This document shows, piece by piece, positions 1 to 50,630 of a DNA stretch of 64,000 nt. Source of the stretch: Eledone cirrhosa (Eukaryota). The DNA lies in contig OZ024740.1 in assembly GCA_964016885.1 (NCBI GenBank), forward strand, positions 40,610,001 through 40,674,000, given 5' to 3'. Under the pieces are notes generated by a model. The model worked only from the letters and a program-made list of their open reading frames with translations. It was not told the origin of the DNA and made no database searches. A program made the position numbers and the translations under genes. Numbering within the stretch: the stretch's first letter is position 1; every line of letters starts with the position of its first letter.

Positions 1-2012
1 ACAATTTCAATGCTTCTATCTTCAATCCATTGGATCTTGAAAAACTGCCATTATTATTGCCTAAATATTTTGGGTAAAACAAAGCATGTTTTCCTAAGCA
101 CTGCATCTTATATATCAACTGATAAGTAAAACTTGCTACTTACAGAGTAATATTCACCTTAGTTTTGTATGCTGGAATTAAAGTGTTTACAAAACAAGCC
201 AAAATTGATGATGTGCAACACATGACAACTACTAATTTGTCTTGTTAATTATATATATTACCATACCAACATTCTCATTACAGTGATATTATCAAAATCT
301 TGAAACATAAGAAAATGCTATATACTAAATTGAAATTTCATTTCATTGTCTGAGTAAAATATTCAATTTACAGAAAATTAACCTCAGAAGTTAAGAATAA
401 AAAATTAAAAGATTTTATTATCTTACTGATAGTTGTATTTTCCTTTAATGTCGATCACATCTGCCAATAAATGAAACACAGAAACACACACACAAACTCA
501 TTTTTAACACAAAGTTAAGCTAGGAAACACTTGTGAGAAATATATTCAAATCTAAAGAATTATGGTTTTTATGTAGAAATTAGAATACACTTACATTAAT
601 TTTTCCAACTAGTCCAATACCTTAAATGAATCAGTTGTAGAGACAAAAAAAAATATCCATAACCTTTACAGTTATGTATTGACAATATATTCTGTATTTA
701 CTAAACGATTACAAAACTATGGTTTAAATATTCCTTAAACTATCAATTTAACATTTCAAAAGACCAACAGAAAATAGAAATGAAGATGTCTTATCTGATG
801 GAAATATTCTACTTTGCCCTTTTCATGTCAGCATTATATCTGCCAAGGATAAAAAATTACACAAACACACACACATATGCAGTCAAAAAGGCTACATCAA
901 TTTTAATGCACAGAAAAGCAATTTCATGTTATATTAAAATTGTTTATCATTTTACATTCCATGTTCAAGTTATACTGACATTCACTAAAGTTGGAAAACA
1001 GTTTCATACCAGCACAATTTCAATCTTTCTGCCTTGAATCCACATCATTTCTCTAAACACTTTCCATTTTCAGTACCTAAACCTTTTCTGTGAAACAAAT
1101 AGAGCATGTTTTCCGAAACACTACAAACTAGTTGAAAGGAAAGAATTCTTTCTTACACTACAATATTCAAATATATTATTTCAACAACAAACCTACATGT
1201 ATAATATAATACATATCAAGAGTCATTCTATACAGATAATATCTATACTACAATGAGACACAAAATGTTTATGTTATAATTACAGAAGCATGTTATTTTA
1301 AGATGAAAATGTTTAATCTGAAATTAATTTACATCAATGAAAAATAGAAATTCACAATCACAGAATCAAAATTTATCATACATATTAATCATGCAAGAAA
1401 TGTGAAGTAAAAAAAAAATTAATTCACAAAAACAAATATTTAGCTTATCTTTGTTGGCTTTCATGTATTTTGTGTTATATTGTTGATCACATCTGTCAAG
1501 AAACAAAATAGAGAGAAACACACACACACACACACACACACATACATATATATATTTTAAACATTCTTATAATGAATGTGAATTATATCTAAAATGTTAA
1601 GAATTATAACTTTCAAGTAGAAAACTGAAAAACACTTACAGGAAACTTTCAAACTACTCCAATTCCTTAAATGAGAATAATTTAGGAGAAAAACAATCTT
1701 ATAACCTACATACGTAGAAAAGAATTAGGAAATTTGTTTTTTTCACATATCTATCAAGGACATTATATAAAATATTTACTTTAACACACCAAAAGACCAA
1801 TAGTTAATAGAGAGGAAGGAAAAACATCTTAGCTTAGTGAACGGTTCTATCTGATCTCCTGTATGTCATCTTTACATCTGCTAATGATAGAAACTTACAT
1901 ACATAGCCAGAAAATAATAATATACTTAGAAGTCAATAATTTCACTGTTATATTGATATTATATATTATTTGGCATTCACACATACTAATAGAAAAGAAT
2001 TGATCATACCGC
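1..2012. repeat. Representative unit, a diverged dimer of two ~1 kb sub-units
   Basis: Homologous blocks lie ~1.0 kb apart: agcatgttttcc 83-94 vs 1103-1114; gatcacatctg ~453-463 vs ~1485-1495; acacttaca...ccttaaatga ~587-629 vs ~1632-1674; aaaagaccaa ~758 vs ~1791; tcatacc(a)gcacaatttcaat ~1004 vs ~2004. Confidence 0.9.
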
Positions 2013-2072
2013 ACAATTTCAATGCTTCTATCTTCAATCCATTGGATCTTGAAAAACTGCCATTATTATTGC
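144..2072 (-). other. Putative chain of micro-exons (about 12 per unit) of a non-coding or decayed spliced transcript
   Basis: Minus-strand acceptor|segment|donor sets: 2010-2072 (tttag|..|gtatga), 1833-1877 (tagcag|..|ctaaga), 1640-1665 (tttaag|..|gtaagt), 1449-1492 (ttgacag|..|ataagc), 1284-1317 (tttcag|..|gtaatt), 1157-1192 (gtag|..|gtaaga), 1010-1076 (tttag|..|gtatga), 795-839 (ttggcag|..|ataaga), 595-620 (tttaag|..|gtaagt), 427-460 (ttggcag|..|gtaaga), 282-324 (tttag|..|gtaatg, weak), 144-171 (ttccag|..|gtaagt). Confidence 0.55.
1519..1554. repeat. (CA)n/(TA)n microsatellite, length-variable in every unit
   Basis: cacacaca...catacatatatata; copy-number differences account for most period changes (2002, 2006, 2010, 2012, 2014). 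Confidence 0.95.
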
Positions 2073-40947: not shown

Positions 40948-41289
40948 TGGAGGCACATGGCTTAGTGGTTAGAGCATTGGCCTTGCAATCGAAAGGTTGT
41001 GAGTTCAATTCTCAGACCGGGTGATGTGTTGTTTCCTTGAGCAAGACACTTTATTTCACATTGCTCCAGTTTACTCAGCTGTAGAAATGAGATGATAGGG
41101 ACTGGGGTCCCTATCATTCCACTGCAAAGTGGTCGTGGAGGTGCCACGGCAAAAAGCACCCAGCACTCACTGTAAATGAGGTTGGTGATAGGAAGGGCAT
41201 CCAGCTGTAGAAATCAAGCCAGAATCAGTTTCCGTCCCACCCTTGCAAGCAGAGAAAAGTGGACGTTAATTGAAATGATGATGATGATG
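40948..41289 (+). mobile_element. tRNA-derived CORE-type SINE (342 bp), (ATG)n tail, ~5-bp TSD ATTTA
   Basis: Absent from empty units (ctgtatttactaaac). Pol III A box TGGCTTAGTGG at 40958-40968 and B box GAGTTCAATTC at 41001-41011. CORE-like segment CCTTGAGCAAGACACTT, 3' GGACGTTAA followed by ATGATGATG, flanked by ATTTA on both sides. Confidence 0.92.
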
Positions 41290-43402: not shown

Positions 43403-43655
43403 TAATAATAATAATAATAATAATGAAATTATTGTGTACAGTGCTCAGGTGCACTACAACTCATCAAAGGTGCATGTATAGTACATAGAATAATGTACAA
43501 ATGTCAGGAAAATAAACAGTGTATGAGTCATGATATAATAACAATAACAATAATGAAATATTGTGCACAGTGCCCAGGTGCACCACAACCCATCAAAAAA
43601 GTGCATGTACAGTACATAGGGCAATGCACAAACATCAGTAAAATGAACAGTGCAC
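43403..43655 (-). repeat. ~130-bp tandem duplication of the LINE 3' terminus
   Basis: taatgaaattattgtgtacagtgctcaggtgcac at 43421 vs taatgaaatattgtgcacagtgcccaggtgcac at 43551, each next to an (AAT)n-like tract. Confidence 0.9.
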
Positions 43656-43685
43656 ACATGTGTGCATGTGTATGGAAGGGGCACA

Positions 43686-46185
43686 TCAGGTGTAGTTTTG
43701 GCGTATTTCGGGAAGCATGAGTGTCTTAAAGGATGCAGTGTCTCGGCAGCTAACAATTGACGCAGGCAGTTTGTTCCATGTTTCAGCAACTCTGAGCGTG
43801 AAAAAATGTCTGCGAAAGTCATGGGAGCTGTGCTGTTTTCTTATCTTGTAGGCATGTCCACGTGTGTTAGACACATGGAGATCAAAGAGGCGCTCAGGGT
43901 TGCAGTTGGCGAGATGGTTAAAAACTTTGTGGGTATTCACCAAGTCCACTGCCAGACGTCGGAGCTTCAATGAATCCATGCCCAGGGAAGCAAGGCGTTC
44001 AGAGTATGGTAGGTGTCTGATGGAGGGTATGCGCTTGGTTGCACGTCTCTGAACAGTTTCCAGGAGGTCAATGTTCCGAGCAAGATAGGGGTTCCAGACT
44101 GATGATGCGAATTCCAAGTGTGGTCGCACCATAGCTGTATACAGTTTTAAATAGATGGCTGGAGAGCGGCTAACAAAGGTCTTGCTGAGTGATGCCAAGA
44201 CACCCTCGGCCTTCTTGACAATCTTAGAGACATGCTTTGTCCAATGCAAATCGTTGCTGACAGTAATGCCTAGGTCACGTTCACAAGAGGACTTTTTGAT
44301 GTCAGTGTTGTGGAGGGAGTATGTGGACGCTGGATTTTTCCTTCCAAAATGCATGGTGGTACACTTGTCCACAGCCAGCTTCAGTTGCCAGTCTGTGATC
44401 CATTGCTGCATTGTGTCCAGGTCTGATTGTAGGAAAGAGTTGTAAATTTCAGGATCAGTCCTTTTGATTTCAAGGTACAGCTTGATGTCATCTGCATATT
44501 TTAGTACCGTGGCATTCTGTAAGTTGGCATCTATGTCATTAATATATGCCACAAACAAAAGAGGACCAAGAACAGATCCCTGTGGTACACCAGATGACAT
44601 CTCATATGGTGAAGAATGCTGTCCTAGAACCGTGACTACTTCCCTTCGGCTGAGAATGAAGGATTTCAGCCAGTCGAAAAGATCATCCCTCACACCCATT
44701 GCAGAGAGTTTTGCCATAAGTCTTTTGTGTGGCACAGAATTAAAAGCCTTAGCAAAGTCAAGGTAAACAACATCCACCCATGAGCCGCTGTCAGTGATCC
44801 GGGTGATGTCCTCAAGGAACTCGATAAGCTGATCACAGCAGCTGGAGTTAGGGATAAATCCAAACTGTGATGGCCGGATGAGGCTGTGAGAGCTCCAGAA
44901 GTTCCAAAGTGTTTCTCTGACACAGGATTCCATCAGTTTGGCCATACAGCTAGTAAGACTGACTGGACGATAGTTGACAGGTGACATGCGGTTGCCCTTT
45001 TTGAACAGGGGAATGACACTGGCAGTTTTCCACTGCTCCGGAGTAGCACCATTGCTGAGACAGTATTGAAAGAAAAAAGAAAGCTGGCGCAAAAGGAAAT
45101 CCCCGCCACGTTTGAGAAGCAGGTATGTCACACCATCAAGACCAGGGGAGGCATAGTTGCGCTTATTCTTAAGGTGACGTCGCAACATTGCAGGTGTAAA
45201 TTCCATAGTTGTTATGGAATTTGATGTTAGAGATGGTGGAGATGGTACATTCTGGTTTTCAACAGTAAAAATACTTGCATAGCACTCAGCAATGAGTTCT
45301 GCGCATTCCTTGGGATCGTCAGTGATCTGGCTTGTGTGGGGATTGCGAAGAGGACCAACTGGAGAGTGAGGTCTCTGCTTTGAATGAACATATTTCCAGA
45401 ACACCTTACTGTCAGGATTGGTTGCGATGCACTGTTCAAATTCAAGCACTGCCTTCTTTGTCACTTGCTTGAGATGGTTAGAAGATTTATTCCGCTTTTT
45501 TCTGTTGGCATCTGATCTATGCAGTTTATATTCCCGTTCAGCGTTCCGACGTTCTTTCCTGGCAAGTCGGACTGCTGAAGTTTCCCAGATTGCACTTTTG
45601 GGGTGGTTATTTTTCCGCTTCCGTGGCACTGATGCTGCACACGCTATCCATATTGAGTCCAGGATGCTCTGGAGTATAGAGTTCACATCTCCAGAGTTAT
45701 ACATCTCATGCCAGTTTGGGCGCTGTAGCTCAGTGCAGTACAAGTTCCAATCCGCCCTCTTCCAATCAAAGCAAGCAGATTGGAGATGGCTCTGGTTTTT
45801 GTTGCTGCCCTCAAGTGCCAGATTGGCAATGATCATAGCATGATCAGAGTCGCCTAGAGGTTCCTCAGTAGTACAACTGATAACCACTTCAGGAATAGTG
45901 GTGAAGATCAGGTCCAAAGTGTTGTCACCTCTTGTTGGAGAGGTGACTACTTGTGACCAATTTGAGTCCAGCACTAGTTCAAGGAAATCGTTTGCACCAT
46001 GTGGCCAACGAAAGGTTTCCCAATCGATCTCAGGATGATTGAAGTCACCTGCAATAAACACATAAGTGGCTGTTTTCTTGGCAGCAACTCTGAGGATATC
46101 GCAAAGCTGTGTGTCCTGATGGTAGTTTGGGGGGCGATAAACAACACCAAGCAGAAGTGTTGACATGGTCATACGTATGTCACAG
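43686..46185 (-). CDS. LINE ORF2, main part (rest of APE plus reverse transcriptase)
   Basis: 828-aa ORF with YRPP, GDFNHPEIDW, LDLIF and SDH (APE) and NYRPVSLTS, QFGF, LDFAKAF, GVPQGSVLGPLLF and YADD (RT). Confidence 0.95.
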
Positions 46186-46518
46186 AAAAAAAAATTCTTC
46201 CTGTGATTCGTTCAAATCAACGCAAGGAATTACCGAAAAGTTTGAACGAACGTAGACCATCACACCACCACCACGGCGGTTAATGCGGTCCTTGCGGAAA
46301 AGGTTGTACCCAGTAATGGTGAAAACCCCATCACAGAGTAAGGAATGTGCCCATGTTTCCGTGACTGTGATGAAGTCAGGGTCGATGCTTCTGACGTAGG
46401 ATTCGAACAGATGTATCTTGTTGCATAAACTGCGAGCATTTAAGGACAACAATTTGTACCCTGCTCGCAGTCTATGATGGTGTGTAGAGGGTGGCAGGTT
46501 GTTCTGGTTTAGTTTCCC
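46186..46518 (-). CDS. LINE ORF2, N-terminal part (APE endonuclease motifs I-II), no ATG ahead of motif I
   Basis: LSLNARSL..K, ITVTETW and RKDR..RRGGGV motifs. The frame is open back into the ORF1 end (-1 frame) and shifts at the T9 run 46186-46194. Confidence 0.85.
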
Positions 46519-47909
46519 AGAGTTGTAGCAGTTTTTACATTGCCAGTTATTGTGGGTAGATCACACTCAGACCAGCTGGTATCTCTCTTCCACGTTTCAC
46601 CCGCCTTGACAAACCTCCAGATCTGCCCATCATCACGCAGACTGAAACTTTCATCTTGTGCTGAGTTCCGATTCAAGGAGGCTGCAGCACGTAGTTTTGG
46701 ACGTACATGGGGTGGTAGGCCTGGGCGTGTTCGGAAGGTAATCCGATTTTCACGCCCAGCTTTAGCAGAGGCCAGATGATATGAGGTTGCCTCTGCGGGG
46801 TCCGAGAAAGACAGCCTGATGAGTCTGGGTTTTGGACCAGGTCGACCAAGGCGGAGGGCACCCTTTGGGGGAACACAGCCTAGGTCTTTGGCCGAGCTGG
46901 CAGCAAATGCCTGAAGATCGGCCTTGTCCTCTGGTACCCCAATGGCAATCACTTCATGGGTAGCAGATTCCGCAGTCTTTTCAGTCTTTCCAGCAAGAGG
47001 TACAGGGAGATTCTTTAGCAAGGCATTCCGATAAGACCCCTCATTGTGGGGTCCTACCCAAATGCTTGCCTCTATTCCTGCAACTTCCCTTCTCAGAGCA
47101 GAAATCATTAGTTGCAGTTCCGCAAAATCTGTACTGGTCGGTTGTTGTTGTTGTTGTTGTTGCTGCTGCTGCTGTCGTTGTTGGTGATGATGTTCCTCCA
47201 CGGGAATGGCAGGGGAGGACACAGTCGCAGGTTGTTGCTGTTGTTGTTGTTGTTGGTGATGATGATGTTCCTCCACGGGAATGGCAGGGGAGGACACAGT
47301 CGCAGGTTGTTGCTGTTGTTGTTGTTGGTGATGATGATGTTCCTCCACGGGAATGGTAGGGGAAGACACAGTCACCAGTTGTTGGTGTCGAGATGTACTG
47401 GGAGTGGAAGACATGGGTTGTTGTTGTTTCTGATGTTCTCCCACAGGAATAACAGTAGAAGCCAGTGTCATAGGTTTTTGCCGTTGTTCAGTAACAGTGG
47501 TAGAGGAAGACACAGTCATTGGTTTTTGTTGTTGTTGTTGTTTTTCAATAACATTAATAACATTCGTGGAGGCAGGCACACAGGCCAGACACTGAAATGA
47601 CCAGGATTTTAGCTGGACCATCTCCCATATTCCATCCATCATAGCATTATGGTGTCTCTTTTTTTGGCCTGGGATCCTCCGGAAGCCTGTGGCGCATTGA
47701 AGGCAGACAGAGATGCGACAGGTTCCACATTCGACCCAGCGATTACGGAACGAGTTTTCGGGTTCCGCACAGATATGGCAGATGTGATTTTCTGGGCAAT
47801 GTTCTATCTTGGGACATCGGCCGGTTTTGTCGCATATTTCATCGATGGATATCACCATGGCAATTTTGTTATTTCTACCCATCCGTAGAAAAACACAGAA
47901 TGTAAACAA
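46509..47909 (-). CDS. LINE ORF1p: PHD-like zinc finger, His/Gln-rich repeats, coiled coil, RRM-like domain
   Basis: 466 aa. Cys motifs CHIC...CGTC...CLQC...CLAC; heptad stretch FAELQLMISALRREVAGIE; VIAIGVPE...LRLGR...PRLIRLSF motif typical of LINE ORF1 RRM-like domains. The true start may be a later ATG. Confidence 0.85.
   Translation of the reverse strand: MFTFCVFLRMGRNNKIAMVISIDEICDKTGRCPKIEHCPENHICHICAEPENSFRNRWVECGTCRISVCLQCATGFRRIPGQKKRHHNAMMDGIWEMVQLKSWSFQCLACVPASTNVINVIEKQQQQQKPMTVSSSTTVTEQRQKPMTLASTVIPVGEHQKQQQPMSSTPSTSRHQQLVTVSSPTIPVEEHHHHQQQQQQQPATVSSPAIPVEEHHHHQQQQQQQQPATVSSPAIPVEEHHHQQRQQQQQQQQQQQPTSTDFAELQLMISALRREVAGIEASIWVGPHNEGSYRNALLKNLPVPLAGKTEKTAESATHEVIAIGVPEDKADLQAFAASSAKDLGCVPPKGALRLGRPGPKPRLIRLSFSDPAEATSYHLASAKAGRENRITFRTRPGLPPHVRPKLRAAASLNRNSAQDESFSLRDDGQIWRFVKAGETWKRDTSWSECDLPTITGNVKTATTLGN
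47140..47375 (-). repeat. Coding minisatellite in ORF1 (~60-63 bp units, TVSSPAIPVEEHHHHQQQQ) with CAA/CAG runs
   Basis: ttcctccacgggaatgg recurs at ~47193, ~47268 and ~47340 separated by (GTT)n runs; more degenerate copies extend to ~47545. Confidence 0.9.
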
Positions 47910-48678
47910 TATAGGTTTAGCACACTTGATTACGATAGAAATAAAATGTCTGTTTTTTTGTGTATTTTGTTTCCGTTTTCCTAAATGTTGTGTGTGTACA
48001 GAAGAGTCTGAATTACATTACATGTAAACAAATAAATATGCTGCGTAAGTTAAATGAAACGTACTGTAGAAGGCAGTTGTTTATTAACAGCGAAATAAGG
48101 TTTTTTTTTTGTTTTTTTTTCCCCTGATACTGCTTCTTTATAGTAAACTTTCAGTAATATTTTTTTTTCCAAATTATTAACTTTCAGCTGCTAGTATATA
48201 TATATATAATTAAAAGGTGTATGTGGGTTAGAAGCGAGGTCAATGTTAAGAAATATTTTACCAATGTAAATTGGTAAAATTGGCCGGTATATTGTCTCAC
48301 ACGAAATAGTGTGGTTTCTTTTCACGTGTGTGTATATGCATATGGTATGTATCTGTATATAAATCTGTGTGTATATTGTTGTTTATATGTTTTGTGGAGT
48401 ACTTACTGCGATCCTTAAGGGACGTAGTGATTTGTTTTGTTTTTTTTTTCTTTTTTCCCCGTCCATGTCCACACGTGGTTTGTTGGCGAAAATCAAGTCA
48501 AATTATATATACTTCGTTAAGATAATTCTATCTTGAAACTGGTACTAGTTGTCAGGGAACAGTGAAAGTAATTGTGATAATGAATATTGTAATCCATCTG
48601 ACATGTGTTTAAAGGGCAGTTTTTGGTGAAAATATTATATTTTGTTCGGTCAAGACGTGGTCAAGCGACCTTCCTTGT

Positions 48679-48687
48679 CGCCATGTT
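48679..48687 (-). promoter_or_regulatory. YY1-like motif AACATGGCG at the LINE 5' end (possible internal promoter element)
   Basis: Matches AANATGGCG within a few nt of the 5' junction, a placement similar to the YY1 site of mammalian L1. Confidence 0.4.
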
Positions 48688-50630
48688 AACTTGAAGAGTT
48701 ATCTGATGGAAATATTCTACTTTGCCCTTTTCATGTCAGCATTATATCTGCCAAGGATAAAAAATTACACAAACACACACACATATGCAGTCAAAAAGGC
48801 TACATCAATTTTAATGCACAGAAAAGCAATTTCATGTTATATTAAAATTGTTTATCATTTTACATTCCATGTTCAAGTTATACTGACATTCACTAAAGTT
48901 GGAAAACAGTTTCATACCAGCACAATTTCAATCTTTCTGCCTTGAATCCACATCATTTCTCTAAACACTTTCCATTTTCAGTACCTAAACCTTTTCTGTG
49001 AAACAAATAGAGCATGTTTTCCGAAACACTACAAACTAGTTGAAAGGAAAGAATTCTTTCTTACACTACAATATTCAAATATATTATTTCAATAACAAAC
49101 CTACATGTATAATATAATACATATCAAGAGTCATTCTATACAGATAATATCTATACTACAAAGAGACACAAAATGTTTATGTTATAATTACAGAAGCATG
49201 TTATTTTAAGATGAAAATGTTTAATCTGAAACTAATTTACATCAATGAAAAATAGAAATTCACAATCACAGAATCAAAATTTATCATACATATTAATCAT
49301 GCAAGAAATGTGAAGTAAAAAAAAAATTAATTCACTAAAACAAATATTTAGCTTATCTTTGTTGGCTTTCATGTATTTTGTGTTATATTGTTGATCACAT
49401 CTGTCAAGAAACAAAATAGAGAGAAACACACACACACACACATACATATATATATTTTAAACATTCTTATAATGAATGTGAATTATATCTAAAATGTTAA
49501 GAATTATAACTTTCAAGTAGAAAACTGAAAAACACTTACAGGAAACTTTCAAACTACTCCAATTCCTTAAATGAGAATAATTTAGGAGAAAAACAATCTT
49601 ATAACCTACATACGTAGAAAAGAATTAGGAAATTTGTTTTTTTCACATATCTATCAAGGACATTATATAAAATATTTACTTTAACACACCAAAAGACCAA
49701 TAGTTAATAGAGAGGAAGGAAAAACATCTTAGCTTAGTGAACGGTTCTATCTGATCTCCTGTATGTCATCTTTACATCTGCTAATGATAGAAACTTACAT
49801 ACATAGCCAGAAAATAATAATATACTTAGAAGTCAATAATTTCACTGTTATATTGATATTATATATTATTTGGCATTCTGTATGTATTAGTTATTCACAC
49901 ATACTAATAGAAAAGAATTGATCATACCGCACAATTTCAATGCTTCTATCTTCAATCCATTGGATCTTGAAAAACTGCCATTATTATTGCCTAAATATTT
50001 TGGGTAAAACAAAGCATGTTTTCCTAAGCACTGCATCTTATATATCAACTGATAAGTAAAACTTGCTACTTACAGAGTAATATTCACCTTAGTTTTGTAT
50101 GCTGGAATTAAAGTGTTTACAAAACAAGCCAAAATTGATGATGTGCAACACATGACAACTACTAATTTGTCTTGTTAATTATATATATTACCATACCAAC
50201 ATTCTCATTACAGTGATATTATCAAAATCTTGAAACATAAGAAAATGCTATATACTAAATTGAAATTTCATTTCATTGTCTGAGTAAAATATTCAATTTA
50301 CAGAAAATTAACCTCAGAAGTTAAGAATAAAAAATTAAAAGATTTTATTATCTTACTGATAGTTGTATTTTCCTTTAATGTCGATCACATCTGCCAATAA
50401 ATGAAACACAGAAACACACACACAAACTCATTTTTAACACAAAGTTAAGCTAGGAAACACTTGTGAGAAATATATTCAAATCTAAAGAATTATGGTTTTT
50501 ATGTAGAAATTAGAATACACTTACATTAATTTTTCCAACTAGTCCAATACCTTAAATGAATCAGTTGTAGAGACAAAAAAAAATATCCATAACCTTTACA
50601 GTTATGTATTGACAATATATTCTGTATTTA

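Follow-up and report, generated by a model that had tools for sequence, protein, structure and literature searches.

Macrosatellites such as DXZ4 and D4Z4 consist of kilobase units present in dozens of copies at one locus, and are GC- and CpG-rich. Short coding exons in tandem units, with the frame kept, are known from the EBV EBNA-LP W repeats and from Schistosoma SmPoMuc, and the primate C19MC miRNA cluster contains repeated short non-coding exons with intronic hairpins. The rat Bsr array is grouped with the SNORD115 and SNORD116 host arrays. The SNORD115/SNORD116 arrays in the SNHG14 (U-UBE3A-AS) host transcript are described, in the accessible text of the two reports, as tandem non-coding exon/intron units within one long transcript (PMC3845636, PMC12429941). 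Splice-centred constraint is typical of human lincRNAs, in which splice signals are conserved and exon cores are not, according to the available part of PMC4245815. Among octopods, the Z-linked lncRNAs Zmast and Zfest are 14-18 kb long, and the description of Zmast as one or two large exons, in the available text of bioRxiv 10.1101/2024.12.09.627507, sets it apart from a micro-exon array.

The tandem array described here is located in the genome of the octopod Eledone cirrhosa (GCA_964016885.1, contig OZ024740.1). It has the kilobase units, single locus and dozens of copies of DXZ4 and D4Z4, but its unit is 27% GC, CpG-poor and exon-intron patterned. It differs from the EBNA-LP W repeats and SmPoMuc in being without a reading frame, and from C19MC in having one modest hairpin per unit, which is not kept in the paralogues. 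The homogenised body and diverged edge are like those of the SNORD115/SNORD116 arrays as the accessible text of PMC3845636 and PMC12429941 presents them, whereas those arrays have roughly one box C/D snoRNA in each intron and here none was found in the minus-strand introns of a unit with 8-10 exon-like segments. Unlike multi-exon lincRNAs, the exon-intron block is amplified about 66-fold in near-identical form, and the transcript is putative only. No cephalopod array of this kind was found in the literature, judged mostly from titles and abstract openings.

The window, meaning the whole 64,000-nt stretch that was analysed (positions 40,610,001 to 40,674,000 of the contig), lies wholly inside one tandem array of ~141 kb (141,000 bases) with ~66 units of ~2.0 kb, 28-29 of which fall within the window. 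Unit lengths range from 1,992 to 2,030 bp and are mostly 2,012 bp, and the units are 97.5-100% identical to the reference unit. An exact-pattern search of the 3.0-Gb genome gave 67 matches, every one at the array locus, and DNA searches in which only the best candidates were scored found no second array locus. With kilobase-scale head-to-tail units, a long array and a single locus, the array is, by structure, a macrosatellite. The unit-to-unit joint was present in contigs of all four public runs, which represent at most two samples from one study, possibly the source of the assembly; one run (X4) resembles low-coverage DNA, with most single-copy bins lacking depth. Contig depth on the unit was ~35-45x that of the single-copy flank (L001:5030-8830), under the 66 assembled copies, a shortfall that collapsed variants or a second, shorter allele might explain. 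When all four runs were compared with one unit plus flank, the 15 strongest joints included no splice joint, a result that carries no information on expression.

The unit's four quarters are all related to one another (0-2 of 200 shuffles, or 0-13 of 200 once TG runs are excluded), although a common exon-intron texture could raise these scores, and a CAGAT acceptor is invariant across all four. This relatedness and the invariant CAGAT suggest a 0.5-kb two-exon ancestor. Diverged half-units occur at the high-coordinate edge only, which is the 5' side of the minus strand (Table 1). Both transposon insertions, SINE-like and LINE, lie within predicted introns. One SINE insertion is common to six units, reaching up to 68,500, and the SINE-bearing units produce, toward the high-coordinate end, a higher-order alternation of 4.4 kb, which helps to order the amplification steps. 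The LINE looks young and has the orientation of the predicted transcript; its upstream frame is 502 aa long, and its RT frame is split near 46,200.

Table 1 Features of the array unit, the array and its surroundings (window positions unless otherwise given; a slash marks the exon-intron boundary)
Feature	Position	Strand	Remarks
Tandem array	extended window coordinates -69,937 to 71,045 (contig ~40,540,063-40,681,045)		66 anchor copies
Repeat unit	61..2072	-	half A 2072-1077 and half B 1076-61; four related quarters
A1, exon-like, 63 nt	2010..2072	-	donor G/GTATGA
A2 segment, 45 nt	1833..1877	-	CAG acceptor, purine-rich, without GT donor
A3, exon-like, 26 nt	1640..1665	-	donor GTAAGT; both flanks invariant in 4/4 aligned copies
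A4, exon-like, 44 nt revised to 65 nt	1428..1492	-	weak donor GTGAAT
A6, exon-like, 36 nt	1157..1192	-	donor GTAAGA, weak acceptor
B1, exon-like, 78 nt from stronger acceptor 1087 (67 nt from 1076)	1010..1087	-	donor G/GTATGA
B2 segment, 45 nt	795..839	-	CAG acceptor, purine-rich, without GT donor
B3, exon-like, 26 nt	595..620	-	donor GTAAGT
B4, exon-like, 34 nt	427..460	-	donor GTAAGA
B6, exon-like, 28 nt	144..171	-	donor GTAAGT
Intronic hairpin	203..270	-	27 pairs, -16.4 kcal/mol (plus strand -8.7), z -2.1, 9/200 shuffles
SINE-like insertion, ~342 bp, tRNA-like head	40948..41289	+	in predicted intron
Endonuclease-RT LINE, 5.3 kb	43404..48698	-	in one unit, few bases past end of segment B2
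Diverged single-copy half-units (edge copies)	71,952-74,700, outside window		73-88% identical
Unique CpG island, candidate promoter	82,000-86,000, outside window		8-12 kb upstream of array on minus strand; no coding match

The initial annotation had placed twelve short segments on the minus strand of each unit, and all are present at the lengths given, each directly after an AG and separated by 80-174 nt (given as 80-175 nt). The T and G skew of the minus strand is real, and the 67-nt segment and both 45-nt segments have stops in all three frames, as had been reported. Its description of the splice signals holds for a part of the segments. Donors of the type GTAAGT, GTAAGA, GTATGA or GTAAT had been seen after most segments; GT follows nine of the twelve, while the other three run into CTAAGA (1877-1833), ATAAGA (839-795) and ATAAGC (1492-1449), and two further donors look weak. 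The T-rich tract said to precede each segment is evident at five of the twelve, with 11-13 pyrimidines among the 17 positions from -20 to -4, and the remaining seven have only 7-10, near the background of ~8.7. Twelve segments in each of 28-29 units do exceed the 300 claimed for the window, but twelve is too many, and at eight per unit the number is ~230. Ten segments per unit were retained as exon-like, eight of them with both GT and AG. Members of the fifth pair (1317-1284 and 324-282) are pyrimidine-rich (purine fractions 0.41 and 0.40), and in both diverged copies of half A the GT donor of the half-A member (1317-1284) is lost. The extended A4 donor has its GT kept, as GTAAAT, in two diverged edge copies. 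Because real donors of the neighbouring genes are varied (GTAAAT, GTATGT, GTTTGT, GTAGGG), those of the array are within the natural range.

In the reading that we favour, held at slightly less than even confidence and drawn from sequence, the array is the amplified interior of a minus-strand multi-exon non-coding gene that is possibly still read and spliced. A two-exon module of ~0.5 kb would have doubled to 1 kb and then to 2 kb, and unequal crossing-over would have multiplied the 2-kb unit ~66-fold. RNA polymerase II would initiate 8-12 kb upstream, in the CpG island, and pass the edge copies into the array. Each unit would contribute ~8-10 short exons, spliced at junctions predicted to the nucleotide, and the resulting non-coding RNA would have ~440 nt per unit, or up to ~29 kb without skipping. 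The exon-intron ancestry on the minus strand has moderate support from strand-biased motifs, purine content and splice positions, though not at twelve exons per unit, and the lncRNA proposed in the initial annotation gains a candidate promoter outside the window; the two segments per unit that are without a GT donor are evidence against the favoured reading.

Divergence at splice positions is about half that of the remaining positions. In four edge-copy alignments 4 of 78 splice positions were mismatched, against 227 of 2,002 others (p 0.054), and between half A and half B the mismatches were 3 of 28 against 190 of 683 (p 0.03), the choice of splice positions in both tests being partly guided by the alignments themselves. 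A choice-free threshold test counted five conserved strong sites, where the null mean was 1.5 (20 of 1,000), and one on the plus strand. Exon and intron divergence was equal (10.8% vs 11.5%; 26% vs 28%). As in the multi-exon lincRNAs of PMC4245815, so far as its available text describes them, splice signals rather than exon sequence seem to be kept, and for this reason the act of splicing probably outweighs its product.

It is also conceivable, though fairly unlikely, that the exon-intron descent is real and that the gene is defunct or stops short of the array, which would then spread as an ordinary silent macrosatellite. Such a relic would account for the broken donors fixed in all units and for the splice sites lost in the edge copies, of which two lack the A4 acceptor (missing also from one array unit) and one has the 26-nt exon deleted. 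With half A kept constant and half B evolved neutrally, site survival was no more than neutral (matched in 320 of 1,000 simulations), so the sites are enriched without demonstrated selection, as a relic would have it. Upstream of the array, the unique 8.7 kb that separate it from the CpG island show no donor strand bias (GTAAG 6 minus, 9 plus), in keeping with such a relic. A silent array fits poorly with the slower divergence of splice positions that persists in the young edge-copy comparisons, and with the intact-looking CpG island upstream.

At 81-86 kb the CpG observed/expected ratio is 0.79, compared with 0.17 both in the unit and in the unique sequence between 76.5 and 81 kb. Across 484 kb, represented by 38 unique AT-rich bins, the local median is 0.33 and 11 bins are at or below 0.25, so low CpG is the local default; nine bins reach 0.6 and make up five islands. 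Three of these lie 5' of coding exons, namely those of RNF185, of RPL38 with a methyltransferase, and of a CS-domain gene, and two, the one at 82-86 kb and another at 192 kb, are without a coding match. The 82-86 kb island resembles the three nearby islands located 5' of coding genes. CpG declines from the island toward the array, which fits a minus-strand gene body. The low local default, the second unassigned island and the methylation of octopus satellites count against the favoured reading. In octopus, methylation is concentrated in gene bodies and satellites are exceptional in being relatively methylated, according to the accessible text of PMC9476566.

Several further elements were observed around the array. 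Inside the island, five or six short CCAG...CTGG stem repeats with ~40-bp spacing, each after a pyrimidine run and AG, lie at L002:9430-9600 on the minus strand, and TGACGTCA occurs at L003 ~895-905, in the most CpG-rich part; we take the latter to be CRE-like. A candidate unique upstream exon is a 61-nt segment at L002:6267-6327 on the minus strand, with acceptor and donor scores of 9.2 and 10.7, and a candidate terminal exon at L017:3189-3100, also minus, has a long pyrimidine tract and AG, with AATAAA ~75 nt on, in CpG-poor unique DNA 17 kb past the array. A second array, of 60 kb (90,421-150,406 in the extended window), starts 4 kb beyond the CpG island and consists of ~1,469 copies of a 41-bp GC-rich satellite with a CpG observed/expected ratio of 0.08 and, on the plus strand, long open frames of low complexity. 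Synteny anchors are an RNF185-like gene on one side of the array and the methyltransferase and RPL38 genes on the other. The RNF185-like gene (L025:536-694 and ~window -186,000) has a first coding intron of 46 kb, and its first exon is 79% identical to the RNF185-like of Argonauta hians. RNF185 has its own CpG-rich start and does not need the array as a leader.

That the splice motifs arose by chance in an AT-rich, TG-rich satellite and were made to look regular by duplication is quite unlikely. The initial annotation had proposed comparing motif density with shuffled sequence and with the plus strand, and the result is divided: GTAAG and YAG are in excess on the minus strand, and matrix-strong donors are not. 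Each unit has six GTAAG on the minus strand and none on the plus strand (expected 2.3; at least six in 6 of 300 shuffles) and ten pyrimidine-rich YAG against 3.9 expected (2 of 300 shuffles). In single halves the GTAAG count was not significant (26 and 32 of 300 shuffles), and the edge copies had eight on the minus strand and none on the plus (0 of 300 shuffles). With weight matrices that are generic rather than fitted to this genome, acceptors were in excess (3 of 200 shuffles), whereas strong donors under the first matrix showed no excess (90 of 200), as chance would predict. The best exon chain of the unit was equalled in 7 of 200 shuffles, and that of half B, at 138 of 200, is unremarkable. 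Since the halves are paralogues, the motif counts are not independent, and the ~4-5 independent sites beneath them speak for chance, as do the several claimed acceptors at background pyrimidine content. Overall, the splice tests are moderate (p about 0.02-0.05) and mutually dependent, with one null not beaten.

Chance accounts less readily for donors confined to the minus strand, for the invariant flanks of the 26-nt exon and the CAGAT of the four quarters, or for the purine steps found at five of the six distinct GTAAG sites. The ten exon-like segments, which were hand-picked, have a purine content of 60%, compared with 45% for the intron cores, a contrast reached in none of 1,952 label rotations. 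A purine step after score-picked acceptors was seen in half B (p 0.01) and in the edge copies (p 0.002), not in half A (p 0.58), and not clearly in the whole unit (p 0.10).

A host for intron-encoded small RNAs of the SNORD115/116 type, carrying the 270-203 hairpin or an unrecognised snoRNA, is very doubtful. A tandem layout in which short introns separate short non-coding exons matches this class as outlined in the accessible text of PMC3845636, and the 27-pair hairpin folds better on the minus than on the plus strand (Table 1), but the payload was not borne out. Rfam searches gave nothing relevant (microsatellite-driven miRNA matches, SINE tRNA heads and other sub-threshold matches), ARAGORN predicted no genes across 11 loci, and no box C/D pair lies within a minus-strand intron of the unit, the sole minus-strand pair crossing an acceptor. 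A crude box H/ACA scan of the introns yielded weak candidates only, without covariation, and the conserved block before segment 1 was considered as an H/ACA element and rejected for lack of covariation. The hairpin is not kept in the paralogues, where the site is unstructured, deleted or replaced (z -0.04, 0.64 and -1.1). At the fourth paralogous site, in one edge copy, a different near-perfect palindrome (L001:9840-9910, minus; -30.8 kcal/mol, z -9.3) replaces the 3' arm, a change that resembles a template switch. Conservation of the introns does not exceed that of the exons, and consensus folds across the paralogues are weak. Six short hairpin motifs had no match in 24,410 characters of the supplementary text of Zolotarov 2022 (PMC9699675), a part of the source that may not include miRNA sequences.

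The decayed exon cassette of a repeat-protein gene, the second origin offered in the initial annotation, is highly improbable: although four segments begin CAG/AT in the manner of phase-1 exons and three have lengths divisible by 3, not one of the 7,270 combinations of at least four exons was open over three units (best stop-free run 71 aa), exon paralogues differ by 1-, 2- and 14-nt gaps, exons diverge as much as introns, and an upstream 52-aa open stretch is without a homologue (nine candidates, longer proteins only, none at E<=1; best Atlas score 0.80; no Pfam match). Together the ten segments make 444 nt per unit, in which no stop-free run exceeds 38 aa. Of 1,382 ORFs in the flanks, 308 passed filtering and 148 of these were scanned for a host coding gene; within 60 kb of the array only transposon-type families were matched, in a scan that short coding exons could escape.

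By analogy, the gene of the favoured reading could be carried a step further, to an improbable form: an octopod gene whose spliced non-coding RNA would join >500 near-identical micro-exons over up to ~29 kb, with an exon number that follows array copy number, and which might act as a multivalent repeat scaffold like the Xist or Rsx repeats, but splice-assembled. If the array is silent, it is still a clear case of a macrosatellite from a gene interior, of modest interest. If it is spliced, its RNA would be non-coding and yet rank with the most exon-rich transcripts known, and the array would document a satellite arising within a gene, its splice signals preserved over three rounds of duplication.
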